Positions 1 to 41,413 of a stretch of DNA of 64,000 nucleotides are shown here, piece by piece. The stretch spans positions 14,446,001 through 14,510,000 of the forward strand of contig CM022669.1 of the NCBI GenBank assembly GCA_012295275.1, given 5' to 3'. This DNA comes from Chrysomallon squamiferum. Its lineage: Eukaryota > Animalia > Mollusca. A program made the translations under genes and the position numbers. The notes below the pieces were generated by a model that made no database searches, was not told the DNA's origin, and was given only the letters and a program-made list of their open reading frames with translations. Numbering within the stretch: position 1 is the first letter of the stretch; each line of letters opens with the position of its first letter.

Positions 1-2128
1 TAGATATAGATTCTAACTATTACTGTTAAAGTTTATTACATTTCAAAATAAAGTGCAAAATTTCAAACACCTTAGTGTGAAAGGTTATAAAACTTAAAAT
101 ACAATTTAAAAAAAATGATGACATTCTTTTTGAGCTTAAATTTGTTATTAGCTATTAAATTTTGCATGAGTTCAACATATTCAAAGACGCAAGAGGAGCA
201 GCTTTTTATCTTTATTATTTTACATTTTTGACATCATCTGTTTGGAATGGGAAAATATGCTATTTTATTGTAATAACCACTATTAATGCATGTATGCATG
301 TTTATTTGTATTAGAGAAATTAATACCTTGATGATAAATTCAAAGAAAAAACATTTAATAAAAATATATATTTTCATGCTTTCCTTTGTTCCTGCTTAGC
401 ATATCCTTTATGCTATTGATAAATTTTACATTTCATACTGCAAAAAGTTCCTGAAATATAGCTACAAATGTTAATTGTTCAGTATAAACAGTCTAAATTT
501 GATCAAGCAAATCTTTCTGTGACCATCCAGGACCCTATTAAGGATTTTTTCCTTCAAATACTATACCCCATTGTTCAACTTGATACTTGTGTCTATATGT
601 TTCTGTCACTCCTTAAGGAAATGATAATGTGTTTTGGCAGTTTAATTGCCTTGTTAATCTTTTTTCAAAAAAATGTTAAAAATCACTAATTTTGATAATT
701 CGACAATAATTTGGCAACTTGTTGTATTATGCATTCTTTGACCCAGGAACCAGTAAAATATATTGTTATTAATTGAAAAAGTTTTCCTCGTTCAACTTGA
801 AGATAATGGAACAATTAAGTATCAAGTATCATGTGATAGCATCAACAGTTTATTTGTTGATCCAGGAAGCTTTTCAAAAAGAAAAATCAGTCTATCTATC
901 TACAGACAGAGAGATAGATAAATACATAGTAATGGAAAGGTTTTTCTACAGCAAAACTGATATTATTCGGCTCAAAGGTGACAATACATTTCCTCTAATC
1001 AAAATACTCCATGCTCTATCAGCCCGTTCATCTTAAAAGTCAGAGCAGAAAAGCTCTTGAGATGTTATTTCTAGTGCTGAAATCATGCCATTATGACCAG
1101 GAGGAAAACAACTCCATCATCCGTTTACACTGAACAATGTGACCAGAGTATCGACCGTCCAGATCACTTAGCATAATCTGTTTACACACAATGAAATGTG
1201 ATTTGCACAGATTCACAGACAAAATGAAAATCTCCTCTCCGAGGTACTTGGCTACTTAATGCAGACCAATTGAACGACTTGTTACAGTGGGAAAATGACT
1301 TGTTCAGACAGCTAGCTTCATGGATACCTCAGTAGAATGTCTGAAAAAACGAAAATGAAAATTTAGTTTGGCCCCCTCTGCCCCCACCCCAAAAAAACCC
1401 CAGAGATAACTTTCTAAAACAAAAATATATTTGAAGTGGAGAAATACATAGGTTTAATGTTATTTTAAATACCTAAAATGTTCCACATTTGACCGTTTTC
1501 ATACTAATTAATATTCCAGTGTTTTATTATTATTATTATTATTATTATGATTATTATTATTTATTTTTTTTGACGTGCCTACACATATTACATTATAAAA
1601 TAATATTTAAGTACATTTTAGAATTGCTGGAATAAATAATTTTTACACTAACTAATATTACAGTATTTTTGGTACTTAACACACACGTACAGTTATTACA
1701 TTATGAAATTACATTTAACCATTCATTTTTAAAATCGATGGAATATATAATTTTCATGCCAATTAACATTCCAATACACTTACGTTATGAATGCGTTATG
1801 TCTGCATTTTGTCATCAAAGGAAATGTGTATTGTGAAAATAAAAGTTAACCAGCAGCATGTGAATGGAATGTCTTATTAACAAGCTGCAGCATGCTGAGT
1901 ACTGCATACTTTTATATTTATTTATTTATTTTTTTAATTTTAATAAAATTTTAATTTATTATATTATCATCATTGTTTTTTTATTTTTTTTTTTTTTTAC
2001 CCTTAAATTGCATTACACAGTGTTTGCTGGCAGTTAGGAGAATGTCTGTTTGGTGTTGTTGTTGTTGTTGTTGTTGTTGTTATGAGCTTTGATTCACCTA
2101 ACAGAATGTCTATTATTGGCTTTGCTAG

Positions 2129-2227
2129 CTCATCCCGGCCGTTTCATCACTAAGTTACTATACCACGGTGATACCTTTGGTCTTTGTGCTGTCCATTTCG
2201 GCCGTCAAGGAAGCAGTTGATGACTTC
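2129..2227 (+). CDS. ATP8B: ATP8B exon variant A (TM1-2 loop + TM2), candidate mutually exclusive exon
   Basis: ttgctag|CTC...TTC|gtaagt; 99 nt; [33 protein letters not shown]; absent from the ORF track. Confidence 0.88.
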
Positions 2228-4691
2228 GTAAGTCAGCTGCCCTAAACAGAGGCAATCTCATCTAACAACACCGGCGAGGCTTTGAGCTGTGTGTTCATAT
2301 CGCTTCTGTGTTAATCGCAAAAACACAACCAAAAAAAAAAAATCTCTCAAGTTTGACAAATGTTTAAAATATGCATGAAGAAGTAAAAGTAAAAACTGCA
2401 TGAGTGTTTTTTTTTATTTTTTTTTATTACCATTATTATTACTGGTTTTTATTATTATTATTATTATTATTGTACATGTATGTACTAATTTCAAAGCATG
2501 ATGGTTTGTCTTAAAGTGACTGTAATGTCCAAAGTTGTGTTTGAAAAATTGGTTATGATGTTTAAACAAGTATGCACAGATATTTGTCAAACATTTAGAG
2601 ATTTTAATAGCACTGTGCTTTCTGTGTTGCATATTTATTTTGTGTTGCAGTATTCATAGTCTGCTGTTATCAATATCTGCATATGCACATGGTTTATAAT
2701 GGATTATGTATACCTACTAGAAATAATCTTAATAAGTTTTATTTATATATAACTGATGTTTAAGCATAAATAGTACAAAATTAATGCATAATAATTAAAT
2801 AATTAAATAAACCACTATAATTATTTGTAACCAGTAATTTTTTTTTATTTTTTTTTTTATTATTATTATTTAAATAAATATATCGCAGAAATATTTGATA
2901 ATGGACCCAATAAATTCTGAAGCATTTTTATAAATATTATAAAATTTATGCTTATCCTGATAAAATTTAGCATGAGAAATGAGAGTCAGGGTATTTTTTT
3001 TTTTCACAAGTGAATAATAAACAAATCCATAACCATGGAATATGCACAAGCCTGATAACTTCAGTAACATAACTCTGACACACAGCTAAAGTTAATGATG
3101 TATTCAGCAAACCAGTTATCAACTGTTACATTGTCACGAAAGGTGAAAACAAAACAAAAATTTATCATCATGATATGAAACAGTGATAGCCCAAGCTTTG
3201 AATGTCAGATTAATTTTAGCTTTGTTATGCTTTTGAACGATATTGCTGTGTCTTTTGCATCACTTTCTTTCAGGTAATATTGTGACACTCTGAAAGCCAT
3301 TATTATTTATTTTTCTGTTCTGTTTTTCATTAACATTTGTGCTTTTATTTATTTAGTTTGACTTTTTCACAGTATTTAGCCTCTACGCATTATTTTTGCT
3401 TGATTTTTTAATTTTCTTTTAATCCACAGATTATGCATCTTTTTTTGCTTTGATCATTAATTTTACTTTAATTATTATTTTAATTTAATTTTGTTTTTAA
3501 TTATCCACCATCGCAAGTTAATTAGAAGCAGGTGAAATCTGACATAGCTTCAGTTTCACAATTTGCTATTAGTCAAAACGTCTACACCTAAAATTTAAAT
3601 TAATTGGCTGAATCAAAAATTACATTTTTGAAAATAATACAAAAAAATATTTTTAGATTTTTAGATTTTAAAATTATTATTTTTAACTTAACTTAACTTA
3701 CAATGGTGGATAATAAAAAAAAAAACCTATTATACACTGAACTTTACAAAAATGTATTTTTTAATTGTACTCAGTTTTATTAAACTAACAACAAGTTTAT
3801 AGTTTTTCAGATTTTCAAAATTAACATTTTTATTACCAAATTTATTTTTCTTTCAGTTTTTCAATTTTTTTTTTTTTCTCTGTCTTTTTATTCCTTTCTA
3901 CTTACTCACCCAACTGAGTAGTACAATAAAAAGTACATATTGTATGGTTGACTGTGTAATTAAATCTTCCGCATTGCCTCACTTTATGATTTCACCTGAC
4001 GATAAATTTCCGTTTTGCTTGTTGCCGATGGTTACAGCTGATGCCCGTCATTTCTTCTTTGACTCCCCTTACCACAGTGATTCCACTTGTTGCTGTGCTA
4101 ACTGTAACGGCAATAAAGGATGCAGTCGATGATATTGTGAGTTACTTTTACTACAAGACAAATTTTTAAATTTTGTGGGTATTTTTTGCGATTATTATTA
4201 AAAAAAATAAAATTTGGTAATTTTTCAATCGTGTTCAGTTAAGAAAAATGACGTAAGAGTCCAATTTTTATTTATTTTTATTATTTATTTATTTATTTAT
4301 TTATTATTGTTGTTGTTATTATTATTGTCATCATCATCTTCTATTTTCTCTTTTTATTACAATCAACAGTTGGTCTTGTGGTTTATTTTTTATTTTCTAT
4401 TTATTTTTCTATTTTGACAGTAAGATTTTTAAGATTGATATCTTGAATATTTCAATTTTTATTTTTTCTAAAACAATTTTTTTATATATTTTTATAAATG
4501 AACTGGGTATGAGGGACTTGCTTAACAATTCAAACTATTTGGTAATTTTATTTTTTCATTAGTGATCCTTTGGGACTTTACTTATTTTTTATTGATTTTT
4601 ATCTTGTTAATGATTGTTTATTAATTTTTTATGATTTGGGTATTTGGGATTAACAGTTATTGGAATTATGTAGTGCATTAATAACTTAAAC

Positions 4692-4758
<67 letters not shown>

Positions 4759-4892
4759 AATAATTATTAATTTATTTTCATCTTTTTTTACTGGTTTCAG
4801 TTTTTATAATTTACTTGTTTATCAACTCATTTATTATTTTGTTCTTCCATTTTAATTATTATTTTAAAACTTTTACTTTTTATTTCTATTAT

Positions 4893-4927
<35 letters not shown>

Positions 4928-5172
4928 CCTCTTAATGACCTGGACTCATGAGGTTTAAAAAAAATTGGGGCATTTTTTTTTTCTTTCTTTCTTTTTAACT
5001 TAAATTTGGAATTTTTATAAAAAATTTAAAAGGAAAATGATTTTAAAAAAACATTAAAAACTGCATCAGGAGACCTAATATCCATTTTCATCTTTTCTTG
5101 GTTATGGAATTTCCTGGTTTCTGCAACATCAACTGAAGGCAAATTACACAGTTTTCAGTTTTGTTTTTAAAA

Positions 5173-5212
<40 letters not shown>

Positions 5213-8200
5213 AAACTGATTTAAAACCTACTAACTTTTCTTCACTTTTTTTATACACTGGATTTTAGAGGGATTAAAGTTTGGTTTTATTTAAAATAAA
5301 ATAAATATTAGATAATCTGCACCACTTTATATAGATGTATAGTTCTTTATATATATATATATTTATTTTTAAAACTATTTCATATACATGTTATTGTTTA
5401 AATTTTCATTATCTAATATTGACAATTAATATTTATTACATCTAGTATTTCTAATGGTAAGCATTTTATGTTGAGAAGTAAATATTTTTGGTTAAGTTGC
5501 AATTTCAGTATGTTTCAAATATTATATTATGCAATTTAGAAATAAATGAAAATAAATAAATATTTATTTTGCTATTTCAAATTTAAAGTCATATCACAAT
5601 AATGAGTAAATGATAATTTCATATTTCTTGTTCATATAATTTTTCTTTCAGTATTTGAAATTATTAATTCATGTTTTTATTTTGCATTTCAAGTTATTGT
5701 TTATCATTTTAAACTTTATGTGTATAATTGTTTTGATGTTGTCTACTTCATTTTTGCATTATTTACTTAATTTAAATTACAAATATTTAAATCATTTTCT
5801 CTAAAATTTAATGAAGTCTTAGCATTAACCATTTTCATTTAGTTTGTGGCATTATAGATATAACAATTTTAGGTCAATGGCATTATAAATATTAAAATAA
5901 TTTTAATGCAGCAGTAATTAATTTTACTTTTTTTTTATGAAATTGCCTCAAGTAAGAATTGTTAAAACAAGGTGTGAAAAATGTTTGTAAGTCCTCAGGT
6001 AGATTTTGATTGAGTGTGCGGCAGTGTTTAACACTGATTAGGACAGAAAGTGCCATTGAGATCCTAGTACATCAATCAGGAAATAAGGGGTAGAGCCAGT
6101 AAACAGTAAATTTTAGTAGTTTCACAGTTTGTGACTAACAAATAACAGATTAAACCAAATTAAAGTATAATTTTTACATTCAGACCATTGCATCATAATT
6201 ATTCAAAATAAAAAAGTACGCACCTGCATGCACTCACACATTCACATTTTGAAGTGTAATCTTTAAATATAAAAAAGTATAAATAAAAATATAATATCCC
6301 ACATCAAACAAACATAGCATTTCAGATTCAAAAATAGTGCAGTTTAAAAGGTAATTTTCTAAATTTAATAACATCATCTACATACATTTTTCACACTTGT
6401 AATTTATATATTATTGAGATATTGGTTCTGTTAATCAGAAATATTTACAAAGTTAAACAGCCACTTTTATGTAATGAAAGATCGTGTAGCACTTTCTACT
6501 GTAAATTAATTTGACACCTTTTTTTTTCATTTCAATACAACAGCAAAGACACAGGAGTGATGATCTGGTTAACAACCGGAAGTCTGACGTACTCAGAGAC
6601 GGCAAACTGGTCTCAGAACGCTGGCACACTGTCATTGTCGGCGACATAATTCGGCTCAAAAACAATGATTTTATTGCAGTAAGTATCTGTTATTTTTAAC
6701 TCAAAACAAAAATAAAAATCTTTCCTTTCTGAGTTTTATTGCAATAAATATTTGTTGTTTTTGATGACGTGAAAAAAAAAAAAAAAAAAAAAAAATTATT
6801 TTTTCTGGTTTATCTGGTTGAATGCTGCTGCCTTATAAATCATTCAGTAAAGATTCCTGGTTGATTTCTATTTCACTCCTTGACTGTATAAATATGGATT
6901 AAAAATACATTAATTCTTAAATAAAATATCTTTCTGAATTACCCGGTTGAATGGTTAACCGTATAATTAAATTATAGTTTGTAAATATGCTCAGAAAATG
7001 ATTGAGCAATATGTTTTTTATTACTTTTTTTTTTTTTTAGTCATTGAAAACAGGTTACCTGTTGAGTTGTTTTTTCTTCTCAACTCTATAAATATTGATT
7101 AAAAATGCATTACTTAAATAAAATACCTTTGTCACTTATCCACTTGAATGGTGCCTTATAATTAGATTATAGTTTGAAAATGTGCTCAGAACATTATAAG
7201 TAATACTTTTTTTTTTCTTTCCAATCATTCAAAACATATTATTTGTTGATTTTTTTTTTCTCCTTGACTTTATAAAATATGGATTAAAAATACATTACTT
7301 CTTAAATAAAATACCTTTTTTTTTTTTTTCTCCCTCCACATATTAATAAATTATTTATTGACTTCATTTGACAGATGATGTGCATACTGAAAAATAAAAT
7401 CAATACTTAATACATCAGACTGGTCTATGACAAATTTTACAAAATTGTTCTGCAGCACACAAACTCTGGTTAAAATAGTTGTGGTTGTTTTTATCAAACA
7501 TTATTAACAAGTTGTTGTGCATGTTACTGAAGTGATGCATCTGTTGATAATTATATATAAATACACACTGAAATGATTAACTGACAAATCTTAAATTTGT
7601 ACACCATAATCCTGACAGAACTGTTGTTTTTTTTAGTGTACAATGGTGATAATATGTTGTTATCAAAGATGTCATTTTGCTTAAAGAAAAACAGTTTTGT
7701 TGTTCAGTTATAAATAAACAAACTACAGGAAAGTAGTCTGTTGACAACCACTAAATCTCTCTGCATCAAAACTCATCTGGATTATTGTTGTTTTTCTGCT
7801 TTCCAGCATTATTATTATTAAGTTGTTTGTTGCCTTCTTATGACTAACACAATTATTACTGAAGGGGTGTATATTTTGACCATTGTAACTAAACATGTAG
7901 TAGATGAAACACACTAATCAAACTGATCTGTTGACAAATCATTTAAAACTGGCCTGTACTAAAAATCAGTCAAGGCTGTTGTTTTTGTTTTTCTCCACTT
8001 CCCAGCATTGTTAATGTATTCTTTGTTATCAGTTTTGCTCGACACTTCGCACATACTGTGTGTGTTCGTGTGTGTGTCTTACTAATCAGGCTGCTGCTTG
8101 ACAAGGAGATGTGTCAGCCACGTTTAGCTGTGCAATCACAAAATGCAATCATTTGTTACTGCATCCTGTGATTTCATTTCCCTCTGCCATGATTAGAAAA

Positions 8201-11200
8201 TGGAAAAACATCCTGAGAAGAACAACTCCTGCATGTACTGATGTAGAGATAACCAGTATTTCACGTTCTCTGAAATAGTGTGTGCATGTTCTTATCCAGC
8301 TTTTACTGTTTACTGACCTTAATTTATATATATATATATATTTATATATATTTTTTTTTTGAATAGGGACAAAGCTTGTTTACATGTTCTTTGTTTCTTA
8401 ATACAGATAGTTGTTTTGTTTTAAAATTGGTGGGATAGAGGTAGTTTTTTAATGTCTTAAACTTAAAGTGAAAATTGTTGTTGATTGGTCATTCATTACG
8501 TCTTTTTAGAATCAGGACAGGACTATTAACCTGAAAAATTGTTCTTATTCATTTTCTTTTTAAATATTTTAAAATCTGGCCAGGACTATTAACCTGAATA
8601 AGTGTTCTTAAATTATTCATTATCTTTTTAAATATTTAAAAATCAGGACAGGACTGTTAATTACAAATAATCAGTATTGATCTTTTTTTTTTTTTTTTTT
8701 TTTTTAATTTATCTTGACTAGGTCTTACAGGATTTGTTTAGTTTGTCCACTCTCCAAAGACATCTGTTACAGCTATTGATCATCTATTCTGCATCTTTTG
8801 TTGTTCTATTTATTGCATTTAGAGTGAACTAGTTTTAAGACTTGTTTTTCAGATATGATATGTCAATACCCTTAATCGGGGTTTATTTGTTTATTTTTAA
8901 TTAAAACAAGTAGAAGCAATAGTAGCACTGTTTTTATTTATTTATTTATTATTGTTGTTGTTTGTTTATTTTTTTTTTTTTTTATTTTTTCATTTATTTA
9001 AAACAGGAAAGCTACAAGATTAGTATGTTTGTTTCAAAATACTTTCAACACCTCAATTATTTGTTATTTTTCATTTAATTCTTCTTTCTTTCTTTCTTTT
9101 TGAAAACTAACTAAATAAAATAAATAAAAAGTTAAAATTGAAAGCAACATCAACAAAAATGTGAACAGAATTAGTTATTAAAGTCTTGTTTAATTTGTTT
9201 ATCCATCAGCTCAATTAACAGATGCAATGTTATTGAATTATTATTTGTTTTTCATTTTTTATCATTTTGTTTTCTATTTTCTTTTTTTTTCTTTTTTCTA
9301 CTGTGTTATCTATTTCTAAATGTAATTATAACTTTCTGATTATTCATTCATTGTTAGAATCTTTTTAATATTAAAAAAGAAAAATACAAATACAGAATTA
9401 GTCCTGTGACACCTTTTCAATGATTTTTTTTTCTATTCTGTAATGTTTTTAATTATCTATCTATCTATCTGTATATCTGCTTGTTTTGTTTGTTTTTATT
9501 TTATTTATTTTATTTTAATTTTAATTTAATTTTATTTTATTTTAATTTTGTTTTAGTTTATTTTATAATTTAATTTAATTTTATTTTTTAATTATTTACT
9601 TTATTTTATTTTATTTTATTTTATTTACTAATTTATATGCATACTAATTAATTAATTTTTATTTGTATCATGCCTTCATTTTATTATTTTTTATTCATTC
9701 ATTTATTTATTTATTCATTCATTTACATATTCATTCCGTCATTTAATTTATCTATGTATTTATAAAATCAGACAGAAGCCAGATTTGCACATCTGTATTA
9801 TTTTTACATTCACCATGACAGAACTAATTTTACAAGTCAGATGAAAAGAGGATATTTTTGTTTGAAACATAAGTAGTGTATTTGCATAAAGATTCAAGGA
9901 CTGTTACATGAAAATGAAAATAAGTAAGAAAGAACACTGCATGTTAATGAGTTCAGATTATGGAAATAATTAGTATTTAAAAACAGAAAAATGATTATCT
10001 TGTATAACATCAAAATGATTAATCAGGTCTAAATAATAGTAGTATGTGAAAATGATTACAAGAAAATATGAAAATAATTAGTTTCAGAACATGAACCCTG
10101 TGATGATTGTAAACATAAAAAACAATTATGATTGTAAACATAAAAAACAATTATGATTGTTAATATGAAACAATTTCTGGTTGTAAACATGAAAATAATA
10201 TTAACAGAATTTTAAAACAATTTAAAAAAAACAACAGAATCTGCAGTATAAACTTTAATGAAGCTATTTTTTACTGGAAACCAGCACCAGAATTATCATT
10301 AATTTCTGTTTGTTATTCTCAAAGGATTTTATAAATTAATTATAAATATTATGTTTTATGTCTTTAATGATATTAAAATGCTACATGTGTTTTTGTGCAC
10401 CTGTCTACATGCATGCATGCAAGATGTTGTTCTGTGTTGAACGACTTTAATTGTTGTAAGTGGGATTTTATTTCTTTCATAGGCATTTTATTAAACCTCT
10501 TGTTTTATTGTGCATATAGAATGCCTGCACATTCACTCATATCCATACATAATTATATGCATATAGATATACAAAAGCAATCACATTCAGACATACATAC
10601 ATACATACATATATATATATATTTTTTTTTTTTTACTTTAAAAAAAAAAAATTTAAAACCAGAATGTAAATATTTTCAGTTAACTGTATTAATTCTTCAT
10701 TCGTATAAACATGGCAACATTTCAGAGTGTGATCTGTTTTGATTAATTTCAAGTTACTTCATTAGTCTGTTGACTCTTGGTAAAACCAAGACGTTTCATT
10801 ATTAACGATGATTTAAGTCTGTTTGAGCTGACGTTGCCAAGAATTTCTTCTCTTTTTAAACAAGTTAAATTGTTTTTCTCTATTGTGCAGTTTATTGTTT
10901 CTGAAAGCCTACTGCTTGTTTGTTTTTCATTACATTTTCTTCAACTGGCTAGAAAAAAAATATATTGTTTATTTGAATGGAAAAAAAAAAGCCTCTTACT
11001 TTTTTCTTTTTTTTTTTTCTTTGTTTAATTTGAACACAAATATAACAGGGAAGTCATTTTTCTTCTTCTTCTTTTTCTTTTCTCTTCATTTATTTGTGGA
11101 AAATTGTCAGGTGAAAGCTATTTTTGAGGTTTAGGAGCAGGGAAGAGGATTTTTTTTTTGTGATTTATTTATCATCCGAAGGTTAGGATGCCTGTTTCAG

Positions 11201-11493
11201 TATAACCAAAAGTACAGCCATCTGTTGCGTAATTTCACTGTGTTGTGTAGACTTTGTTGTTGAAGAAACCACTCGGATATTTTCCTTCATACAGTTCTGG
11301 CATTCATGTCACAAAGTTCCAGCAGAAAACAAAGTAATCAACTCAATCTAAGGGCAGATCTTTGGCTTGTTGACAGGGGGTGGTGGTGTCTGTATATATT
11401 TTTTTTTTTTTTTTTTTTTTTTTAATTTTATTAAAAGAAAATGACCTGTAATTTTACATTATATTTGGTATACTGTTAAAATTTAATATTATA

Positions 11494-11524
<31 letters not shown>

Positions 11525-14500
11525 AATCCTTGAAATTAAATGTTATTAAGCAGGACAAGGAGACCTGTAAGAGCTCTCTTGATAGACCTGCCGCTGAAAT
11601 CTGTGTGAGAGAATTGATTTCCTTCAGCTCAAAGGATCTCTGACAAATAAAAGCAGCACTGTTCTGCAACCTGCTTCTCGAACATCACAATGAAAATCAG
11701 AGAAACAACAAAAGCTGTGGCCATGTTTCCGCACAGTGTTATCAATGCAAGACCTTGTTTATTTCACTCCCAGGAGACCCCTGGGTTCATTAATCAATTA
11801 GGCAGACCAATAACATTATTTTATATCAAGTGAAGTCAGCTACATCAGAAGCAGCCAATGTGGAGATGTATCCACTGTGCATGACAGTTTCCATCAAACG
11901 TTGTCATTGTCATTCCTGAGTCATGTTTGATGCTTTGATTTGTTACTCTGATTGATCTCTAAATGAAATTACAATGACATTTAATTTAGATTATTGACGT
12001 AATCATAATAAATAAATTTGTGATCTCATTCAGGAATGAATAATATCTCATTATCTTAGTCTCTGTTGAGGTTTTTTTTTTTTTTTTTTTGGGTTAATCC
12101 TGCTAACCCATAAAGATCTCTCTATCCATTTGGCTGATCATATGTAGATTTAGCATTTGATTTAACTACTGAACTATTTCTTAATATCTGTCTGACTAAA
12201 TCTTGAATGATGGAGCATAAAATGTTTAGATTTATATCTGTGTTCATTTGTCTGGAGTTCTGTAGATTTGGTCTTTCCTTAAAGATTGTCTTGTGTTTGA
12301 CTTCCCAGTTTGTTCAGATAAAAGATAGCAGTGAAAAATTTAGATTTTCTTTAAATAAAAGTAGACTTAATTTCTTCTTTAAATATTTACATCAAACTGC
12401 CTAATTCATCGATATAAAATATATCTCTGTGCCTTTGATTTTGAGGGTATTTTTAAGCATTTTGAATATAATTCTTCTTCCTGATATAGTGTATCATATA
12501 TGTATGATGGTTTTAAATTTATTTTTCCATTTGAAAACAAAAATATGTAGACCAACAGTTGAAGCCAAAAGTACAGGACCATCTGAATAATTTCAATTAA
12601 AATAAAAACAACAACCAAGAACTATTCCCTGGACAGTTCTTCTTATTCAACAACATGTACAAATATTACTTGATATGTGGGGTAAAAAACAAAACAAAAG
12701 GACTTGAGCATTAAAATTCTGGTTGTAGGAGGAAATAACTCAATAATACATTTTTTTTATTAGCCTTTGTGTAGCTAATAAAAAAAATGTATTATTGAGT
12801 TATTTCCTCTTACAACCAGTGTTTCTCAACTAACCATGGGAAATGTATAATATGTCAGGTTTTTTTTTTGTTGTTTTTTGTTTTTTTCTTCTTCTCACTT
12901 TGTATATTTGAATCTAAAAGGCCCTTTGCTCTTTTTATTAGAAAGAAAACAGAGCATCTTTCTTTTTCTTCTGAAGACAACAGAGTCAATAATATAAAAA
13001 TTAAACAGACTATGTTCATTCATAACAAAAATAGAACCGTTGAAATGAAACCAGGGATTCTCACTTATATTCTGAAGAGACAGTTTGGTCAGGTCTCAGT
13101 ATTACTTGGTGACAGTTCACAGTTTTTTTGTCACTTATCAAGTAAATTACCTTTGTTGTGTTTTTTAGGCAGATCTGTTTCTACTGTCCACCAGTGAACC
13201 TAACAGCTTGTGTTACATTGAAACAGCTGAACTGGATGGGTAAGTGATTTTTAACAGACTACCAGCATGTTAGATTATATATTACTTAATCTGTAAAATC
13301 TTAAAATGTTTTAGCAAGGCTGGAGTTAAATTGTAAACTTTGTTTTAATTTATTTTGTTTAAATTTAATTATTAAGAAATGATTTCTATGTATAATAATA
13401 ATAATAATAATAATAATTTATTTTAATTACATTTATTTCCTTGTATATGATATTTCTTTTCAATTTTCTTTTTTAGTTAATATTTTTTATATTTTTAATT
13501 GCATTGCCAGTGAAACCAACTTGAAAGTAAAACAAGCAATACCAGAAACAGCCAAAATGGGAGACAACCATGAAGAAATGAGTTTGTTTAATGGTATACT
13601 CGCAATTTAATACCTTTCAGCTGTCTTCATTTTAAAAAAGTGGAAGTGATGATTTTAAAATTGTTTTGCAAAACAGAATCATTTAGTCTAAACATGATTC
13701 TGATTATAATGAAAACCTTGCATTCAGAAATTACTCTAAGAATCATTTCATTATTACCATGTTAAGAAATTCATAAATGTATATATTTAGTAATGTCAGA
13801 TGTTTCTGAAAGAGTAATATTAAGTAATAACAAGTTACATTTTATGCTTTGGTGTAAAATATGTGACCTTATGTATTCATGTGTCTGTGTGTGTGTGATC
13901 CTGGTATGTCTGTATGTTTTATATTTTACATGGATCAATCAATGCACATGTACAACTGAGTTGGTTTATGAATTTGTGTGTTTGTATGCGTGAGAAACTA
14001 TTATTAACGTTACATATTTTGTATTAACTGAACACTTAATTAAACGTAACGGTATTTCACATTACAGCTGAGATCGTCTGCGAAGCCCCCAACAACAGAC
14101 TGAACAAGTTTGAAGGGAAAATGACGTGGCGAGGCAAGACATACGCAATCGACAACGACAAGATTCTTCTCCGTGGCTGCGTGCTGCGCAACACGCAGTG
14201 GTGTTACGGTCTCGTGATATTCGCCGGGCTCGACACCAAGCTGATGATGAACAGCGGGAAAACCACTTTCAAACGCACACACATTGATCGCCTTATGAAC
14301 CTTCTGATCATTGGGGTTAGTCTTTTTTATATATATATATAACTTTATATATTTTTCTTTTTGTTTCAGAGTTAATCTTTTGTCGATAATGTGATCCATT
14401 TTGATTATGATTTTAATTTTTTTTTTTTTTTCCAGTTTATTAAATAACAGTGTTACAGTATTATAGAAAATAAAGTATGTAATCGTTTTTTAAGATGCTA

Positions 14501-15284
14501 AAGAGATTTTTCATATATTTTTTTTTTTTTTTTTTTTTTTTTACATTTTATGGTAATTCAATAATAGTAATAAACATCACTGGATTGTTAAAACTCATGT
14601 CAACTAGTATATGTTAATTTTCCGTTGATACACTTAACATCATACCATCATGTTAGCATCAGAAATGTTTTGATACAATTTATAAATACCACATTTAACA
14701 TTTATTTTTTTTTTTCTTCACGATTTTCAGATTTTTCTCTTTCTTCTAAGTATGTGCCTAATCTGTACCATAGCCTGTGGTATATGGGAGTCGTACACTG
14801 GCAGTAACTTTCAGATTTACCTTCCTTGGGAGGACTTTCTGAATCAGGACACAGAAAGAGGTTCAGCAACCATTGCTGCGCTTGTGTTTCTGTCCTACAT
14901 CATCATTCTGAACACTGTTGTGCCTATATCACTCTATGTGAGGTGAGCACATTCAAAGCTTTGCCACAATGTGATATTTCCACATTCTGTACTTTGTCAT
15001 TATGTGAGGTTAGCCTTGTCGCATAGCACGAAGTGAAGATATAATTAGAGTTTTCTGATATTTTTCATTTTCTGGAATCTCGATAATTGGTCTGATATCT
15101 GTAAAAATAATTGTCATCTTAATTCTTCCTGAATTCTCTTTTGTCTCTCTTTCATTGTTTAAAATATTATTATTATTATTATTATTAATTTATTTTTTGG
15201 GGTTTGTTCAGAACTATTTGCTGTCAACCACATGACAAATACAGTTAATTAAATATTTCCCATTTTAACAAATTATTATTAATA

Positions 15285-15343
<59 letters not shown>

Positions 15344-18167
15344 CGTACTTTCAGGTTTCTATATTACAATATTTATTTACTGTTTTCAGTGTTGAAATAA
15401 TCCGTCTCGTGAACAGTTACTGGATCAACTGGGATGTCAAGATGTACTATGAGAAGAAAGACATGCCAGCCAAAGCTAGGACAACTACACTGAATGAAGA
15501 GCTTGGACAAATAGAGTACATCTTCTCTGACAAAACAGGAACACTGACTCAGGTAAAACACAATTACTACTGTACACACCTGTAGGTAGTTATGCAAACA
15601 GGTATCATTTATTAAAACACCTGTAATCAACATGTTGATAATAAAATGTAATGTCAGACACATAAAGACCTATCAAGGTATATTTATTATGTTGAATGGA
15701 GATCTTTTAACATGAAATAGCGATTTAAATCTATAGATGGATTTCGTTTTTTAATTTAAATTTAATGCAGATGTGGGTTTTTTGTGATTATTTAAACATA
15801 GCTGTGTTTGTTTATTTAAACATAATATATATTGTTTTGTGTTAGTTTACACATAATATAGCTAATTTATAAATTTATTTAAATATATAGCTGTAATAGG
15901 TTTGGTATTAATTTAACAAAGCATAGCTAATATTTCAGTAATTATTTAAACATAAATCTGGTTGGGGTGCTGTTGATTTATTATAACAATTAGTGTAGTT
16001 ATATTGGTTTGTGTTTATACAAACAGAACTAAATTTCTTCTGTTTAAACATAATACATCAATTTGTAAATATAATGCTTTTATTTGGGTATATTTATTTA
16101 CAGTTTTTGTAACATCAGAAACACAGACATTCTGTATTTAAATTTCAGGATTTAAATTTCTCAGTGTCAGTGAAAATCTTTTCAGTGCGCATTTGAACTG
16201 TAGTAAAATCATGTTGCAAACAGGCATGAAATCTGTGTAACATGTGCTATTTACACACTTTATTGAATGCCTTGTTAGACAATATAGCATTTGAATATTA
16301 ATCTCTATTGGTTATTTTGTCTTCCTTTGTAATTTACCATGAGTGTGTGTGGGGGTGGGAGTGGGAGTGGGAGTGGGGGTGTGTGTGGGTGTGGGTGTGT
16401 GTGTGGGTGGGTGTGTGTGGGTGTGTGGGTGGGTGTGTGTGTGTGTGAGATAATGAGTGAGATAGCAGGAAAGAGAATTTTTAGAAGTAAAATGAACAGT
16501 GGGTTTATGTAAGAAATGTGTTAATGTTTGTGTGTATAGCTGTGCATGTATATGCATGTATATGTATGTATATAATTTATATAATATGAAGATCTTGTTA
16601 TCTTTGATCATAGTAAAGGAAGCCAAACTTGTCAACAGCTGCAGGCATAACTATCCATTAAACCTTTTAAATAAGAAAGTAAAAAATTAAGATTTATTAC
16701 CTTTGCCTTGACCTACTTTTTGTAACACATTTGTGGGTGCCAGATATCTGTGCTTTTTATGTGAAAAGATTAATATAATTTTAACAAAATATGAATGATC
16801 AGAAATATAAAAACAATAATAATAATTACAGCAGCAACAGCAGCAGTAGTAGTAGTAGTAGTAGTAGTAGCGTTACAGTAGTAGTAGTAGTAGTTTCTTA
16901 AGGCATTAGTAATAATATTTTTTTATTTATTATCACTACTACTATTACTTATTCCACTACTACAGCAACTACTACTGATACTACTGCCACCACCTTGCAT
17001 TAACAACCACTATTACTAGTTCTGATTAGTACCAATACTGCTATCTGTGCTTTTATCAGAATCTGTTAAGATTTAATAACTGAACCAATACTTATTGTCA
17101 TGTCACTTTTTTATAATAAATATAATATTAAAATTTATTTCAGAAATATCTTTTTATCCTTTTATTTTATTTTTTTTTTTTTTTAGCTTTTATTGACTAT
17201 TACCTAGATCACTATAAATTGCTTCTCACAAATAAGAAAGCACTTTTCTTGTCATAGATAAAATACTTTGTGTAGTACTGTTGGAACTGGAAATAACAAA
17301 AACGGACTGAATTGTGTGTGTGTGTGTGTGTGTCTGTGTCTGTTATTATTAATTTTAATCCTCTGGCTTGCAGACATACACATTATAAAACAAATCTTAT
17401 AAGAAATCATGATACTGGAACTTGCTCATGTTGTTTTCAGAATATAATGACATTCAACAAAGCATCTGTAGGTGGTAAAGCCTATGGGGATCCAGTTGAT
17501 GAGGACGGCAATATTCTTGACTTCAGAGTGAGTAAACTTGTACTAAGACATTATTATTATCATTATTATTATTATTATTATTATTATGACAATCTCTGTT
17601 AATGGATTAAGGATTGATTAATTTATATTTTATAAACTGTTTTCATTCTATTGTTGAATGGGGTTTTTTTTTTCATTATTTCTTTCTCTTGATGTATTTA
17701 TTTGTTGTTTTTATTTATGCATTTTAATTTTTTTTTTTATATTTATGTATTCATTGTTATATTTTTTTTTTTTTTTTTGTAATAATCCTTTTATTACTAG
17801 ATATACTGATTAATGTAATGTTTTAATGAAAAAAAATGTTTGTGGGTAGTAATTTTATATATTACAAATAATATAAATATAACTTTTATTATTTATTTTT
17901 TCATATAGATAATAGAGTTGTAGTGATTTTGTTGTAAAGATTATGACAAAAATAGATGAATCTTAGACATAATCAATAAGTCTTTTTAGAAGTGGATAAT
18001 TGAATTTTATTTATCATGAAAAATAAAGAACCAGTGAAAAGAGATTTTTTTTTTTTAAGTACACAAACTTACATTTTTGTTATATTTTAATTTTCAGTAC
18101 TGATAATAAATTCAGAATTTAAAAAAATAATTTAAGTTTAATTTTTTATAAAGACTGAAAATGTAAA

Positions 18168-18258
<91 letters not shown>

Positions 18259-18917
18259 GTTTTGTCCATTACTGGATACAAAATTACTACAGTAAAAAAA
18301 GAAATAATAATTATATAAATAAATAAAATTAAAATAATTTTCTTTTTTTTTTCTCTCTATATATAAAACTATCAATTATCAATCTTGTCAACTTATTTAT
18401 TATTTAACACATTATGAAAATGTGAGATCTCTTTTCTTTTCACAGTGCATGTCGAACATAGATTTTTCTGTCAACAATCCTTACAGTGAAGACACTTTTA
18501 TGTTCTATGACCCCAGACTGCTTACTGAGGTGAATGCAGGAAACCCAGATGCAAAAAGGTTTTTTAAAATTCTTGCCCTCTGTCATACTGTTATGCCAGA
18601 GAAAAAAGAAAATGGTAAGTAATTAATTTATGTATGTTTTATATTAAAGTGTTTCATTTTTTGTGTGATAAAACTATATAAAATAATTTTTTAAATAAAG
18701 TTTATCATTGGTTAAATGATAATTGTAGTTCTAATTAAGTATAACTTTTCACAGGTATAATTTTCCTCTTTTTTATATTTTTTCTTTAATTTTTTATTAG
18801 AAACAAAGTAATATAGATATTTGTATCATATAATTAAGAAATATAGATTAAATTTAGTATTGAATATAGATAGATAGATAGAGAGCATGATTTCCAGATA
18901 GATAATAGATAGACAGA

Positions 18918-18951
<34 letters not shown>

Positions 18952-20510
18952 TAGATAGATAGATAGATAGATAAATCAACAAAGAAAGACACAACATATA
19001 TAGACTAGTCAGTATTTAAACTTCAATATAAAAGATAAACATACCTTGAAAGAAGCTTTATTTAAACTGGCTTAAAAGAAACAGGTGAAATAATTTTTGG
19101 TGGATGTGGAAAATAAGTTTTTAATGTTTGTGTAAATAAAAATAAGTTTATAATGTTTGTTGTTGTTGTTTTCACAGGTAAGTTAGAGTACCAGGCTCAG
19201 TCACCTGATGAAGGGGCTCTTGTGTCAGCAGCTAGAAATTTCGGATTTGTTTTCAAGGTAACTTTTTTTTATTTTAAAACTTTAAAAAATACATATTTAC
19301 AACAACAACCAAAAAAATTAAATAATATATATATATATAAAAATGAAAAAATAAAAATAAAAAATAACATAAATAATAAAAATAAAAATTAAATATAGTT
19401 TCAAAATCGAGATAATAGTTCATCTTAAAAACAAAATAATGTTTTAAAATGTTTTAATAATTTATTGAATCACCATTCTTAGAAATTACCTGTGTGTAAA
19501 ACAGTTAATATTCACAACACTGAAAGCAACTTACATATATAATCTATAAATATCAGTTTACAAATTTTATATTTTTATTATTTATAATTTTTTTTTAAAT
19601 TTATTTATTGCTAATCCATTATTTTATTCATTTATATAAGAGAATTTTATTCTTTTAATATTGATTTATACTTTTTCAATACATTTCTGGCTTAATTATT
19701 ATATTTCGTTATTAATATTTAATTTCTTTATTAATGAAAAAGAATACTGATATATTTTTTCAGTAATAACAGAAATATGTTTCATTTTATTTATCCTTTT
19801 ATTTACTTATTTGTTTTTTTTTGTTTTAAATTTAAATTTTTTTTTTTTTTTTTTTTTAATGTTGCTGTAAATTAGTTTAAGTTACAATATTATTTTATTT
19901 CAGTCTCGAACTCCAGACACTATAACAATTGAAAGTAGAGGCAAAGAGAAAGTGTACGATGTTTTGTGCATTCTTGATTTTAACAATGTCCGTAAGCGTA
20001 TGTCTGTAAGTATTTTTTTATTTAATACATTACTTAGTTGTATAGGGATCATATTTCTAACTGATTTCAAAACATAGATGGTTGGTTCATGAATGTATGA
20101 AGTCTTGTTCAGTAAAGTTTATTGAAATTTTCAATAAAATAAAAATACATAACAGTCGAAAGGATGAAATATTAAATTTATTTTCTTGTTAATGGAACTT
20201 TAAAATAACAAAAAGATAATCACCAGACTTTTCTTATGTATTGTAGGGTGGTTGTTTTTTTTTTTTTTTTTTTAAATCTTTCATTTTTAAACAAAATTTT
20301 TAGTTATTATTATTATTTTTATATTTTTTATTTTATTATGTTATTAGGTTTTTTCTTTCTATATATAAAAATGTTATTTTAATATTTTTTTAAATTATTT
20401 TTTATGTTATATTGTTGATATTTTGGTCAGAAATAGGTTTTTATTATTAATTTGTTTCCTATATCATTTTTTTTTTTTTTTTTTTTTTTTTTAATGTTGT
20501 TGTTGAATTT

Positions 20511-20608
<98 letters not shown>

Positions 20609-23600
20609 TTTTATAAATAATTAAATTTAAAATGAATCAACAGGTGATAGTGAGAAGGAAAAACAAAATCAGATTATACTGCAAGGGAGCCGACTCTGTT
20701 ATCTTTGAACGTTTGGATCCCAGCTGTAATGAACTGGAAGAACTCACCATGCATCATTTGAATGTATGTGTGTCGGCTGTATTTTCTACATTTTGTAATT
20801 TTAGTGTTTTAGGTTTGATTTGTACTGTCACTAAACTGTAGCCGAATTCTTTATGTGCTTTAAAAATATTTATAAGTTCAGTCTGTTTTGATAAAGAAAG
20901 AATTGCTAAAGGTTATTGAATAATTCATGAAAATAATTACACTATGAAGTATAATTTTGAAAAGTTATTAAACTTTGAATTTTATTAATGTTCTTTACCA
21001 TTATAACATAATTACCTGGATGTGTGTGTATATATATATATATATATATGTGCTGTTGAGTTTTTATTATACAAATAAATAAGATCACTAATAAAATTAA
21101 AAGTTTAATAACTTTTCAAAATTATACTTTATAACGTAATTATTTTGATGAATTAGTCAATAACTTTTTGCAATTCTTTCTTATCAATATGGACTGAATT
21201 TATATATAAATATAATGTGTATGTCTACAAGCCAGAGGATTAAAATTAATAATAACACACACAGACACACACACACACACAATTCAGTCTGTTTTGTTAT
21301 TTCCAATTCCAACAGTACTGCACAAAGTATTTTATCTATGACAAGAAAAGTGCTTTCTTATTTGTGAGAAGCAATTTATAGTGATCTAGGTAATAGTCAA
21401 TAAAAGCTAAAAAAAAAAAAAAAAAAAAAAAAAAATAAGGATAAAAAGATATTTCTGAAATAAATTTTAATGTTATATTTATTATAAAAAAGTATATATA
21501 TATTTGTGTGTGTGTGTGTGTGTGTCATAAATGTTTGATTTGTATCTACCATTACAACATAATTACCTGGATGTGTATTTTTGATTTTTAGGAGTTCGCA
21601 CAAGAAGGTCTCAGAACATTGTGCCTTGCCTATAAAGACATTAAACCAGCTGAATTTGAGACATGGAAAATGAAACATCATCTAGCTAGGTTAGTGGTGG
21701 GGTTTTTGCAAAATACTGGCCTGACTGCATTTCTTAGCAAAACAGTTTCTTAATTTTATTCATCAATAGTCAAATTCTTAATTTTATTTATCAAATGTAA
21801 GAGTCTTAGTTTTTTTATTCATCAGTTGTCAAATTCTTAATTTTATTTATCAGAAAACAACAGCGGATTGTCATACTTATTTACCACAGTTAGTGATAGG
21901 GATCATTTAACATTAACAGTTTCCTGCATTTTTATTATTTCTCTGAATATCTGAGATTATATTTTTTCTAGCAAATAAATAAAAATATGTCGACAAGTTT
22001 TTTTTACATTTTTATTATTTTTATTATTTTCTATTATGCAGTCAGTGTTTTTCAATATTTTCATAAATATTCTGAAATATTTTTAGCATTACCAAGATAA
22101 ACAACATAATAAATCTGTTACTTTCTAACACTGAATCAGTGGGGCTTCAGATTTGTTATGAATATTTTGAAATATTTTTAGCATTAACCTGCATGTCCAA
22201 CGATAACTCTAAACATTTTTTTATTAATTTCTGTAAATGCAGTAAACTGTCAGTGGATTTATAAGTATTTTTAGGAATATTTCTATGTGTTTTAGTATTA
22301 CTCTGGAAAACCGTGATGATCAGTTGGATACTTTGTATGAAGAGATAGAGAAAAACCTTATTCTGGTTGGAGCCACTGCAATAGAGGACAGACTTCAAGA
22401 TGGCGTTCCAGAAACTATTGCTAATCTGTCACTGGCTGGAATCAAGATTTGGGTGTTAACCGGTGATAAACAAGGTTAATACTGCATTTTAAAGACACAT
22501 CCAAAATCTACAATAGTATATTTAAAATGTGACTTTATCCTTAATTCATTGCTGTGTTCTTGAATTATATCCTGCTTGTAATTATTTTTAATATTATCCC
22601 ATTCTTTAATTATCTTTATCATTATTTTACATCTTAGTTATCTTGAATAATAATGTACCTTGTGACCTTGTTTTTAGTTATTGCTATCTTTCTGAATCTA
22701 GTTATTTTGAATTTCATCTTCTCTGTATTTATCTTGACTATTATCTCACCTATATTATCTTGAATTTTAACCTGTCTGTAACTGTAATCATCTTGAATTT
22801 CTTCCTATCTGTATTTATCTTGAATTTGTATTTTACCTGTTTTTATATATCGTGAATAGTGTTTATCTTATATGCATCTTAGTCATTTTTTAAATATTAT
22901 AAAAGTTAAAAGTGACAAAGATGTAGTTTTTCCTTTTATCTTCTTATTTATAAGTGTGTGTGTGTCTGTTTGTGTGTGTGTGTGTGTGCATCAATTATTC
23001 CTGCTCATTGCTAACAGTAATGAAATTTTATTGTATAGGAACTGCTGGTTACTACTAATAATGAAATTTTATTGAATAGGAACTGCTGGTTACTACTAAC
23101 AATGAAATTTTATTGAATAGGAACTGCTGGTTACTTCTAATGATGAAATGTTATTGTATAGAAACTGCTGGTTACTTCTAATGATGAAATTGTATTGTAT
23201 AGGAACTGCTGGTTACTACTAATAATGAAATTTTATTGAATAGGAACTGCTGGTTACTACTAATAATGAAATGTTATTGTATAGAAACTGCTGGTTACTT
23301 CTAATGATGAAATGTTATTGTATAGAAACTGCTGGTTACTACTACTAATGATGAAATTGTGTTAATACAGAAACTGCTATCAACATCGGCTACTCCTGCC
23401 GACTGCTAACTGAGGACATTGAGGAGTTGTTTATCATTGATGCTGAAACAATGGAGGATGTTGAAGAACAGCTGGTGTCTGCTCTAAAACTAGTAGAGAA
23501 CTACAAAAGCAGCAACTCAGACAGTAATGTTATGTGCAATGGTGACGCTCATTTTAATTCTGCGGACGGTGTTACTGTTAGCTGTGAAGAAAATCCGGAG

Positions 23601-25681
23601 TATGCCCTTGTTGTCAATGGTCATAGTCTGGTGAGTGTTGACAAATATTTTTATTTGTATAATAGTGTTCATTTTTCTGGTTTTTAATAATTATTATTTT
23701 TTTTTTTTTTTTCTTTTTTTTTTTTTTTTTGTAACTCATTTGTTATTTTTACTTGTGTGATAGTGATAAGTTTTTGATTTATTTATTTTTCTATTTTCTA
23801 TTTTTGTAGAACTCGTATGTTATTTTTTTATATATAATACTAAAGTGATTTTTTGGATTTTTTTATTATTATTAATTTTTTTATTTGTATAATTGTATTA
23901 TTTTTTGTTTCTGTTTATTTTTTCTTTATAACTCATTTCTTATTTTTATTTGAATAACTGTTATTATTTATTTTTTATGTTTATATTTTCTTTGCAATTC
24001 TTTTATTTTTACTTGTATAATGGTGTTATTTTTATTTATTTCTGTTTATTTGTTTGATAACTCATTTGTTATTTTCATTTCTATAATACTTTTTTATAAA
24101 ATATTTAATGTTTGACCTTTTAATCAAAAAAATCATTTTATTAGTAAATCATATTTTCAAATGAATATAAGTAATTTTTAAAATCATAAATATTGAAATT
24201 TTATTCAATGCATTTTAAAATTCTAATGAATCTGTTGCATTTTTGAATGAAAGAAAAAAGTGACTTGAACAAATAATTAATATATATATATGTGTATTTT
24301 TTAACAGGCGTATGCTCTGAAGCCCGAATTGGAAGGTTTGCTTGTTCAGCTAGGGACAGTTTGCAGGTCTGTGATCTGTTGCCGGGTAACGCCACTGCAG
24401 AAGGCTCTTGTTGTCAACATCATCAAGAAACACAAGAAATCCATCACATTAGCAATAGGAGACGGTGCCAATGATGTCAGCATGATTAAAGGTATATCAC
24501 AGTTTTTTTTTTTTTTATTTATTATTATTTTTTTTTTCCTTGATGAAGTTTTCTCAGTGGAGTATCAATAATTCTTAATTCTGATCACTTTACACCAATT
24601 TAGTCATGTATATAGATCTCTTGCACTGATAATTTTATATTTTCTCCACTGGCCTATTTCCCGTTCCTGCATGAGCTGCAAGACTTTCAATATGCTTTCC
24701 TACCCATGGGAAAGCTACACATAAAATATTTCTTTTTTTTTACTGTAAATGAGAAATGAAGGTAGTTTCTACTAAAGACATTATTTCATTCATTTTGATG
24801 AAACAGGCAACAGAGAAAATTTTATTCATTGGCTAATATTACACATTATAAATATCTGTTACTTCACAAACTTGGAGCATGTATCTCGTATTATTTCCCA
24901 CTTTAACTGCTGTGAAATTAAGATGCAAAATGGAATAAATCGGACAAATATGCAACTGATATATAACTACAGTAATTTTAATAAATGATTTTTTTTTTTT
25001 TTTTTTTACCAGTCATGCATATAACATGGGTAGTCATTTTTATAAATTAAAAATGTGTGTGTTTGTTATTTCAGCGGCGCACATTGGGGTGGGTATCAGT
25101 GGGCAGGAGGGTATGCAGGCTGTCCTGGCCAGCGACTACGCACTTGCACAGTTCCGATACCTCGAACGTCTTCTTCTTGTCCACGGCAGGTGGTCTTATT
25201 TCAGAATGTGCAAATTTTTGAGATACTTTTTCTACAAGAATTTCGCTTTTACCTTGTGCCATTTTTGGTATGCCTTTTTCTGTGGATTTTCTGCCCAGGT
25301 AAGATGTATTTCTTTTTTAATTAAAAAAAAAAAATGACTGTGAATAAAATGAACATGTTGTATATGATTGTAGTGTGGCAGATTTTGTTTTTTGTTATTG
25401 TTATTGCTGCTGCTGCAGTAAGTATGGTTATTATTACGTGTTAATTAATTTATAATACAGAATAAATTATTGCTAGAAAGTGATGTAAGCCAAATGTGTT
25501 TATGTATTGTATTTTTTTTTTTTTTTCTTTTTTTTTTTTTTCTTATACAAGAAATTTTAAAGTTCATTATATTTCTGTTGCAGCCTTTGTTTGATCCAGA
25601 TTTGTTTTTTATTTTGTACAAAATTTAAATAAAAGTATATTTTATTATTATTAAGATTATTGATTATTATTATTATTTATA

Positions 25682-25725
<44 letters not shown>

Positions 25726-26900
25726 TTCATCATTATTAAATTTAATGGTTTTTAAATTATTATTACTATTATTAATTAAGTAAATAATAATAATGATAAT
25801 AATAATTTTTATTAATATTCATATTCATATTATTATTATTATTATTAAACATAAAATATTTCTATCTGACACTTGTCTGCTCCATCATAACATTTGTCAA
25901 GTCTTCATTATTATAGAGTTTTTTTTTAAATTTTAAATATGTAAATGCTAGTGTTAATTCTTTTTCAGACTTTGTATGATCCATTCTTCATTTCTTTGTA
26001 CAATGTCTTCTACACATCATTACCTGTCCTTGTCCTAGGAATATTTGACCAGGTAACTGCATTGTTATATATAATATCTCAACAAAAAACAAAATCATAC
26101 AAATTTAAAAATAGAAAAGAAATAATGAATGTATAATTACGACATTTATTTTATTTTACATTTCATTTTTCTTTTTTTCTTTTTTTTTTTGAGGGGGAGC
26201 TATTTCTGTAAACAACATATTCTCTTTGTACAGCATAAACAACAGATATATTTCATTTATAACTTTCAATCTTCAAATTTAAAAAAAAAAAATGTTCTTG
26301 TTATTTATTTCAGGATGTAGACGAAGATCATTCTCTCCGATATCCAAAACTGTACACACCAGGCATGTACGATGACCTGTTCAACAAGAAAAAGTTTCTC
26401 TTCAGTGTTGGTGAAGGTATCATAACCTCATTAATTTTATTTTTCATTCCTTACTGGACTTTCCTCAGTGGTGTAGGCTCATCTGGTATGGGAGAAGATG
26501 ATCTGCAGTCGTTTGGTACCTACGTAGCAGCTATTCTTGTGGTCTCTGTCAATTTGAGGGTAAGAGATGTTCCTTAAAGCATTTCACCCAAAACATCCGT
26601 ATTAAACTTGTTACTTTCATATTGTATTTTGCTGTTTCTGTATTAAGTTTATTATTGTCATGTTAAACTTATTATCGTTATGTTGAGAGTATTGTTTTCA
26701 TACTGCATTTCGTTATTTCTATATTATATTTTATTATTTCCATGTTAAGCTTATTTCCATATTGTTATTCTCATGATCTTTGAAAAGTGAATTTTGGTTT
26801 AAGATAAAAAAAAAATAGAATAAAAATTAACAAATAAACTTTTGAATGATGATAATTAAATTTGAAGTGTAATAAGTGTATAGTAAAACCATATTATACA

Positions 26901-26937
<37 letters not shown>

Positions 26938-36675: not shown

Positions 36676-37312
36676 CAGTGGTACCTTGACTTACGAGTTT
36701 AATTCATTCCATGGCTGAGCTCATAACTCAATTTGCTCGTATATCAAATCAATTTTCGCAGATGAAATTAACTGAAATACCATTAATCCGTTCCACCCCC
36801 CAAAAACAACCCCCTTTTTTTGTAACATGTTTTTAAATAAGAAATATGTATTTATAAATGACAAATATTGTATAAAAATAAACATTATAAAAGAGAATGT
36901 AAAAAAATAAACTGGTTTTGTAAAGTGAACAGTGTTAGGGTTTCTCCATCTTTTCATGGACAGAGGTCTGCAGCTTAGAAATTATTTTAACACTTTTTGC
37001 TGGAGTTACAGCCTTTATCAACTCCTTCTGCTTCAGTATGGTACATATCGTAGAAGTACTATACTTGTACTGCCTAGCCAAGTTGACACCTCTCTATTTA
37101 ATGAGTTAATTCAATGGACATCATCCACTTCTTCTCAGCACTGTCCTTTGCACTCATTTTCTAAAGATCCATGATTGTGAATCAATGGAAATTTGGCAAA
37201 AAACTGCACAAAATGTGAGAACAACACAACACAACAGAGATGCTCTTAACTCAGATTTTGGCTCGTAAATCAGAAACTTGTAAGGTGGGGCACTTGTAAG
37301 TCAAGGTAAGAC

Positions 37313-40812: not shown

Positions 40813-40969
40813 TCACGACAACTGTTGCAGCATTGCCAAAATGGCACAACGGATACCTTCTGCCAGTTCTTCAGCACTGTATGGATTGTTTAAAGGTGGA
40901 ACGTGAATAAAAGCAGTTCGGCACCGGTCAATGTGCAGAGATAGATAGTAAGAGAAATCACATAGGTAC
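40813..40969 (-). CDS. PGPEP1: PGPEP1 coding exon 4
   Basis: (R)YLCDFSYYLSL...AFIHVPPLNNPYS...LQQLS TGA. Confidence 0.93.

Positions 40970-41382: not shown

Positions 41383-41413
<31 letters not shown>

Follow-up and report, generated by a model that had tools for sequence, protein, structure and literature searches.

The ATP8B gene of the gastropod Chrysomallon squamiferum raises the question of whether a single flippase gene may produce two different pumps by choosing between two versions of one membrane segment. In the window analyzed here (64,000 nt of contig CM022669.1), two exons of 99 nt each are located on the forward strand at 2129..2227 (exon A) and 4038..4136 (exon B). They are separated by an intron of 1810 nt with U2-type ends (2228..4037). 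Both exons are in phase 0-0 and have AG acceptors and GT donors, as an initial sequence-only reading of this region had described; the donors are GTAAGT in A and GTGAGT in B. The recount of its peptide comparison gave the same figures: the two peptides share 20 of 33 residues, 14 of which are encoded by different codons. On the nucleotide level 63 of 99 positions coincide, with pS 0.68 (near saturation) and pN 0.24. Both strands of the window were searched with a profile of 124 distinct homologous segments, from which both window peptides were left out, the identical Gigantopelta B segment being included. Exon B scored 111 bits and exon A 105 bits, the best other place having -18.7; thus the likeness of A and B is not due to chance. 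No third copy was revealed by the same search of both strands; the intron sequence 5' of base 1 is not part of the window.

The flanking introns are not similar, in agreement with the initial reading. The likeness of the upstream flanks of A and B does not exceed that of shuffles at 60 nt and at 150 nt (p 0.25 and 0.90, respectively), and the value of p 0.037 for the 150-nt downstream flanks, one of three flank tests, comes from a single AT-rich match of 14 nt. Homology of the flanks was thus rejected as being within chance, and the motif common to both upstream flanks is the branch-point-like consensus. Matches to the motif CTRAC were found 31 nt 5' of exon A (2098..2102) and 42 nt 5' of exon B (3996..4000). 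The A-B intron also contains an AT-rich inverted repeat of 33 nt with 88% complementarity (3489-3521 / 3693-3725), possibly a small transposon remnant or a hairpin.

The N-terminal exons of the gene are 5' of the window, and the upstream exon is known solely from loose letters of RNA contigs. The common downstream exon C (6544..6678), preceded by CAG, encodes the start of the actuator domain. It was identified by tblastn, and its first 30 nt are the loose contig letters observed behind both A and B. The remaining coding region, traced by tblastn with Gigantopelta and Patella proteins, comprises approximately 19 exons (6544..27678) and ends with a stop codon at 27676-27678. Among solved structures human ATP8B1 is the best match of both peptides. 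The last coding exon matches ATP8B of Gigantopelta aegis first (80%), followed by proteins of Haliotis and Patella. The closest homologues are thus ATP8B P4-ATPases, and both the DKTGT phosphorylation motif and the DGETN actuator motif are present. The gene product is predicted to be a CDC50-dependent phospholipid flippase.

A single study provided four RNA runs (X1-X4), whose contigs were mapped on positions 1900-4300, a region without exon C and the B-C intron, where joins skipping both exons are out of view and contigs give no rates. Contigs of X1, X2 and X3 match exon A exactly and continue into letters of the upstream exon on its 5' side and into the first 30 nt of exon 6544 on its 3' side. 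For exon B, coverage comes from X1, X2 and X4; among the joins listed, both of its joins occur in X4 (in a contig of 3759 nt) and the upstream one in X1. The letters preceding B are identical to those preceding A. Hence A (X1, X2, X3) and B (both joins in X4) are each spliced alone between the same flanking exons, and either one continues in frame into 6544, as had been proposed. Both forms are present in two runs, X1 and X2, and X1 has one contig of 157 nt per exon, as would be expected if A and B were alternatives flanked by common neighbors. X3 contains A only and X4 contains B only; since contigs show presence and not absence, this is at most a hint of a choice regulated by tissue or stage and was not counted as evidence. 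No A-B joint is listed in the four contig sets, although contigs lose rare forms. The sole joint listed, from 3502 to 3857 in X4, is unrelated to either exon. Besides the exon contigs, X2 has two intronic contigs, and thus some unspliced RNA or DNA is present in it. One of these contigs (2889-3429) differs from the window by 6 substitutions and 2 one-base indels and is another allele, as unspliced RNA or DNA.

Both exons are therefore found in transcripts, and frequent joining of 2227 to 4038 was not seen in the contigs, which cannot give the rate of co-inclusion. Together with the isoform pairs of 19 other mollusc taxa, this agrees with the mutually exclusive use suggested by the initial reading, and we are nearly certain that such use is the main pattern.

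The pair was then compared with relatives using 30 protein clusters, 18 from molluscs and 12 from other animals, with no more than 15 members listed per cluster. Among the members listed, both A-type and B-type segments occur in 17 of the 18 mollusc clusters, covering gastropods, bivalves and octopods, and the duplication is old, as had been claimed. For Ostrea edulis, the 2 members listed contain only A. Isoform pairs of the same length, with all differences inside the 33 residues, were found in 19 mollusc taxa: 10 of these are gastropods, among them a pair without a name in the Elysia cluster, 7 are bivalves and 2 are octopuses. The two copies are adjacent and homologous, agree in length and phase, have intact splice sites and are both conserved in relatives. 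In all ten gene models that contain both exons A precedes B, the same order as in the window. The earlier remark that annotation could easily miss one exon has to be weakened: the pair is not usually missed, and RefSeq lists both forms in many relatives, as unnamed X variants. Three exon versions exist in Dreissena (P0025, P0172, P0175), where 5 positions distinguish the two B-type versions, which suggests a later duplication. In Babylonia areolata, two ATP8B records on contigs of unequal length (P0018, P0022) are one A-type and one B-type; these could be two gene copies each keeping one form, or the result of incomplete annotation.

Outside molluscs, the segment varies in one of 12 clusters, that of the nemertean Lineus, with four versions. 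The other 11 have one version per species (Lingula, Tubulanus, Dimorphilus, scorpion, spiders, horseshoe crabs, Daphnia, Trichinella, crayfish, rotifer, Ptychodera), keeping in mind that annotation can miss exons. A second same-length swap was observed in Lineus longissimus at residues 956-978 (P0146 vs P0048, 9 differences), in an exon after TM5. This exon corresponds to positions 25966-26052 of the window, where it has a single copy. The four TM2 versions and the second swap suggest that Lineus has two exclusive exon clusters. A metagenome scan yielded 10 loci, none of them two-copy and none mollusc-like. A genomic metagenome contig encoding an arthropod-like peptide (L001) contains the 99-nt exon once, with identical borders and short introns on either side. 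In a distant intron-rich P4-ATPase of another metagenome locus (L002:97-195) the matching exon is also 99 nt long with AG/GT at the same borders, and thus the exon borders may be very old.

What does the swap change in the protein? The initial reading assigned the exons to TM2. TM2 is indeed included; however, the exon also spans the exoplasmic TM1-TM2 loop. In the AlphaFold model of a Haliotis B form, from which the helix limits were taken (pLDDT of about 60 in the region), the end of TM1 falls on exon position 1, the outer loop comprises positions 2-9, and position 10 is the first of TM2. All 21 A/B pairs differ at position 19, which is Phe (18), Thr (2) or Leu (1) in A and Ala (15) or Val (6) in B. 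Positions 9 and 11 differ in 20 of 21 pairs, and positions 10 and 12 in 9 of 21; the pairs are related by descent and thus do not represent 21 independent events. Positions 3, 8, 13, 16, 20, 27, 31 and 32 are invariant in these pairs. The B form has Thr/Ser-Pro-x-Thr-Thr throughout and resembles most other protostomes. At the gate the A form has aromatic pairs in bivalves and Chrysomallon, and Pro-x-Ala/Thr in other gastropods and octopuses. In Chrysomallon, positions 10-11 are Tyr-Tyr in A and Pro-Leu in B, and position 19 is Phe and Ala, respectively; 10 of the 13 differences are conservative. The B peptide is identical to that of Gigantopelta, whereas the A peptides of the two species show 5 differences in 33 positions, including three neighboring ones (9-11).

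In solved P4-ATPase structures the outer gate is formed by TM1-TM2, and TM2 is one wall of the TM2-4-6 groove. The entry-gate residues Pro240/Gly241 of yeast Dnf1 presumably match exon positions 10-11, although no argument rests on this match. In human ATP8B1 the same fold region corresponds to the A/B exon, and its Thr144 aligns with position 13, which is Thr in both A and B. The available part of one structural study equates this residue with ATP11C Ser91, which turns toward PS or away from PC, and reports that ATP11C Thr90 (exon position 12) also bonds the PS headgroup (PMC12723151). Residues of TM1-TM2 shape the headgroup cavity and shut the entry, according to the accessible text of a preprint (10.1101/2023.04.12.536557). 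Positions 15, 16 and 19 correspond to ATP8A1 Val103, Pro104 and Phe107, which are named as part of the acyl-chain pocket in the portion seen of another preprint (10.1101/666321); the numbering was set by matching these three residues, and the same offset puts Leu at the preprint's 'Ile105'. The strongest known specificity residues in the available text of a 2024 review, TM1 Gln, TM4 Pro-4 and TM6 Asn (PMC12424579), are all outside the exon.

The best explanation overall, and a probable one, is that transcripts include just one member of an old tandem-duplicated exon pair and that this splice choice tunes the lipid-carrying groove, so that one ATP8B gene would encode two flippases. These would differ solely in the outer loop and the second membrane helix, sharing the catalytic core and having different groove walls. 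Form A, with the bulky Phe at the equivalent of ATP8A1 Phe107 and, in Chrysomallon and bivalves, a TM2 beginning with aromatic residues, would narrow or reshape the acyl pocket and the gate. Form B, with a small residue at position 19 and a Thr-Pro helix start, would keep the common protostome form. Core positions 13, 16, 27, 31 and 32 would be left intact. On this comparison of residues we lean slightly towards a change of lipid preference or gate kinetics, with the core preserved, as the effect of the swap. Both states of positions 19, 10 and 11 also occur in single-form orthologues, and hence each state is compatible with ordinary ATP8B work.

It is possible, rather than probable, that the pair is exclusive and the swap nevertheless alters trafficking, stability, contact with CDC50 or another partner, or the fit to membrane thickness, and not the choice of lipid. 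The conservative nature of most Chrysomallon differences is consistent with this, as is the fact that the headgroup-binding residues of solved structures are mostly outside the exon or invariant; besides, TM1-TM2 forms the mobile portion linked with the actuator domain. However, the only position that differs in every pair maps to a residue of the ATP8A1 acyl-chain pocket. Moreover, CDC50 packs against TM10 and keeps TM3-10 in place, whereas TM1-2 remain free. A further proposal is less likely than not: in molluscs, separately or jointly with Lineus, exon choice might act as a lipid-specificity switch in their single ATP8B, changing the class of lipid (headgroup, ether or acyl type). If so, splicing would do in these animals what vertebrates do with four paralogues, ATP8B1-4, between which we take the TM2 segment to vary. 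The vertebrate, arthropod and nematode records examined, the vertebrate ones being ATP8B1 and bird, reptile, frog and dog proteins, have one version of the segment per gene. In Lineus, the four versions of TM2 and the two of a second groove-side exon would extend the switch to combinations.

The age of the pair was addressed with trees of the 33 columns. In the tree of 24 mollusc rows (LG+G4, also used for the AU tests) all A exons are split from all B exons by one branch (77/83, unstarred), and none of 500 label shuffles was as low. Forcing A and B of each class together was weakly rejected for gastropods (p-AU 0.026) and bivalves (0.041), and not rejected for Octopus (0.098). The same single A/B change is seen in a tree of 57 rows with outgroups, at 55/74. 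One duplication before the split of gastropods, bivalves and octopods would be the simplest reading of these trees, not a proven one. A still older origin, with the pair dating from early bilaterians and an A-like copy kept by vertebrates and some nematodes and a B-like one by arthropods and annelids, appears unlikely. It is suggested by the grouping of bivalve A exons with Xenopus, Gallus and Caenorhabditis bovis in the 57-row tree (93/97, unstarred), by position 19, which is F or L in deuterostomes and mostly G, A or V in arthropods and annelids, and by the four Lineus versions. However, in 33 columns two aromatic residues can be enough to drive such a grouping. Repeated convergence is indicated by exon A of Chrysomallon, which has Tyr-Tyr, gained or kept, although its identity with the A exon of Gigantopelta, a Pro-Val form, is 85%. 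The single form in 11 of 12 non-mollusc clusters also argues against early origin, and such exon events often arise independently, as stated in the available parts of two studies (PMC9741552, PMC7434440).

It may be asked how strictly the exclusion is kept and by what means. Database models contain both exons in 10 cases from 7 species and neither exon in 4 cases from 4 species. The former include RefSeq models of Pomacea, Crassostrea virginica and Argopecten, several others being GenBank 'hypothetical' predictions (Littorina, Dreissena, Pinctada); the latter are RefSeq models of Patella, Pomacea, C. virginica and Mytilus edulis. Thus the exclusion may be leaky. By the general topology of P-type pumps, proteins with both exons or neither, having one helix more or less ahead of the actuator domain, should be non-functional. 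Such transcripts would stay in frame, and their products would be removed as misfolded protein. A deliberately loose exclusion, with these transcripts serving as a regulated off-switch of the pump, is improbable. The RefSeq models of both kinds in several molluscs are compatible with it, and since 99 nt keeps the frame, nonsense-mediated decay cannot remove the transcripts; on the other hand, such joints are absent among those listed in the four Chrysomallon runs, and several both-exon models are just 'hypothetical' predictions.

For the same reason of frame, nonsense-mediated decay is ruled out as the enforcer of the choice. Steric blocking is ruled out by the 1810-nt intron, the AG-free zone before B being only 102 nt, and mixed U2/U12 spliceosomes by the GTRAGT donors of both exons. 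The choice of one among several tandem copies, as with the four of Lineus, resembles Dscam-like docking-site/selector systems; in positions 1-6600 of the Chrysomallon window, however, no such pairing is stronger than chance. The best stem has -17.7 kcal/mol, compared to a mean best of -17.2 in block shuffles, and 5 stems at or below -15 kcal/mol were found where 1.9 are expected, none of them convincing. One candidate is an 11-nt intron element at 3529..3539, whose complement at 3988-3998 overlaps the branch-point-like site of B; its -15.4 kcal/mol is not above chance given the same shuffle mean. The output of a repeat search was dominated by AT runs. By elimination only, leaky control by splicing factors is left as the default, and the choice would then depend on tissue or state.

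That A and B are functionally equivalent and kept by drift is highly improbable: both residue states do occur in single-form orthologues, but the A and B signatures are distinct in three mollusc classes (mean segment identity 0.67 within A, 0.71 within B and 0.58 between A and B of one species), and pN is 0.24 with synonymous sites near saturation.

The exon pair has parallels among known systems. According to the available text of PMC9741552, tandem duplicated exon substitutions are ancient, have often arisen by convergence and are overrepresented in genes of membrane transport. The ATP8B pair is alike in that homologous exons of equal length and phase are swapped at one site of a membrane transport protein and are ancient, whereas that catalogue covers human and fly. 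Flippases, including ATP8, are absent from its main text, and ATP8 is absent from one supplementary file, the event tables probably being outside that file. The closest parallel in function is provided by exons 6a/6e of coq-2, the rhodoquinone switch, as presented in the accessible part of PMC7434440. There too equal-length exclusive exons remodel the core of a membrane enzyme near a lipid-like substrate, and both pairs are present in molluscs and absent in vertebrates, for ATP8B in the records examined. However, the substrate switch is proven for coq-2, whereas for ATP8B it is proposed from structural mapping. The coq-2 exons are 134 nt long, not a multiple of three, compared to 99 nt here, and that pair is also found in annelids and helminths, where the few ATP8B records examined have a single form. 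For Drosophila dATP8B seven predicted isoforms are reported, with TM2-type exons unmentioned in the part of the article available (PMC3961175). Further related literature includes PMC5732287 and 10.1101/2020.06.24.169771.

A literature search, covering listings and the starts of abstracts outside subscription journals, gave no description of ATP8B A/B isoforms. The exon pair is real, expressed and conserved in three mollusc classes, and apparently undescribed in the literature searched. The lipid choice of P4 flippases is only partly solved, and the entry-gate features separating related flippases are still unclear according to the available text of the 2024 review (PMC12424579). The A/B isoforms are natural pairs differing at 10-17 residues in the gate loop and TM2. 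As such they can serve directly as test constructs, and they single out the equivalent of ATP8A1 Phe107 as the one position that differs in every pair. The finding also draws attention to annotations of several mollusc genomes in which the two exons are wrongly joined.

Several other features were observed in the window. An exon of pyroglutamyl peptidase (Pfam PF01470) is located at 42581-42817 on the reverse strand. Exons with YjeF_N matches at 60472-63763, also on the reverse strand, presumably belong to EDC3. Two coding-looking ORFs without Pfam matches at 40816-41697 (reverse strand) resemble, we assume, a fucose mutarotase. Finally, two similar degenerate stretches without Pfam matches, at 36929-37300 and 45177-45756, are taken by us to be DNA-transposon remnants.
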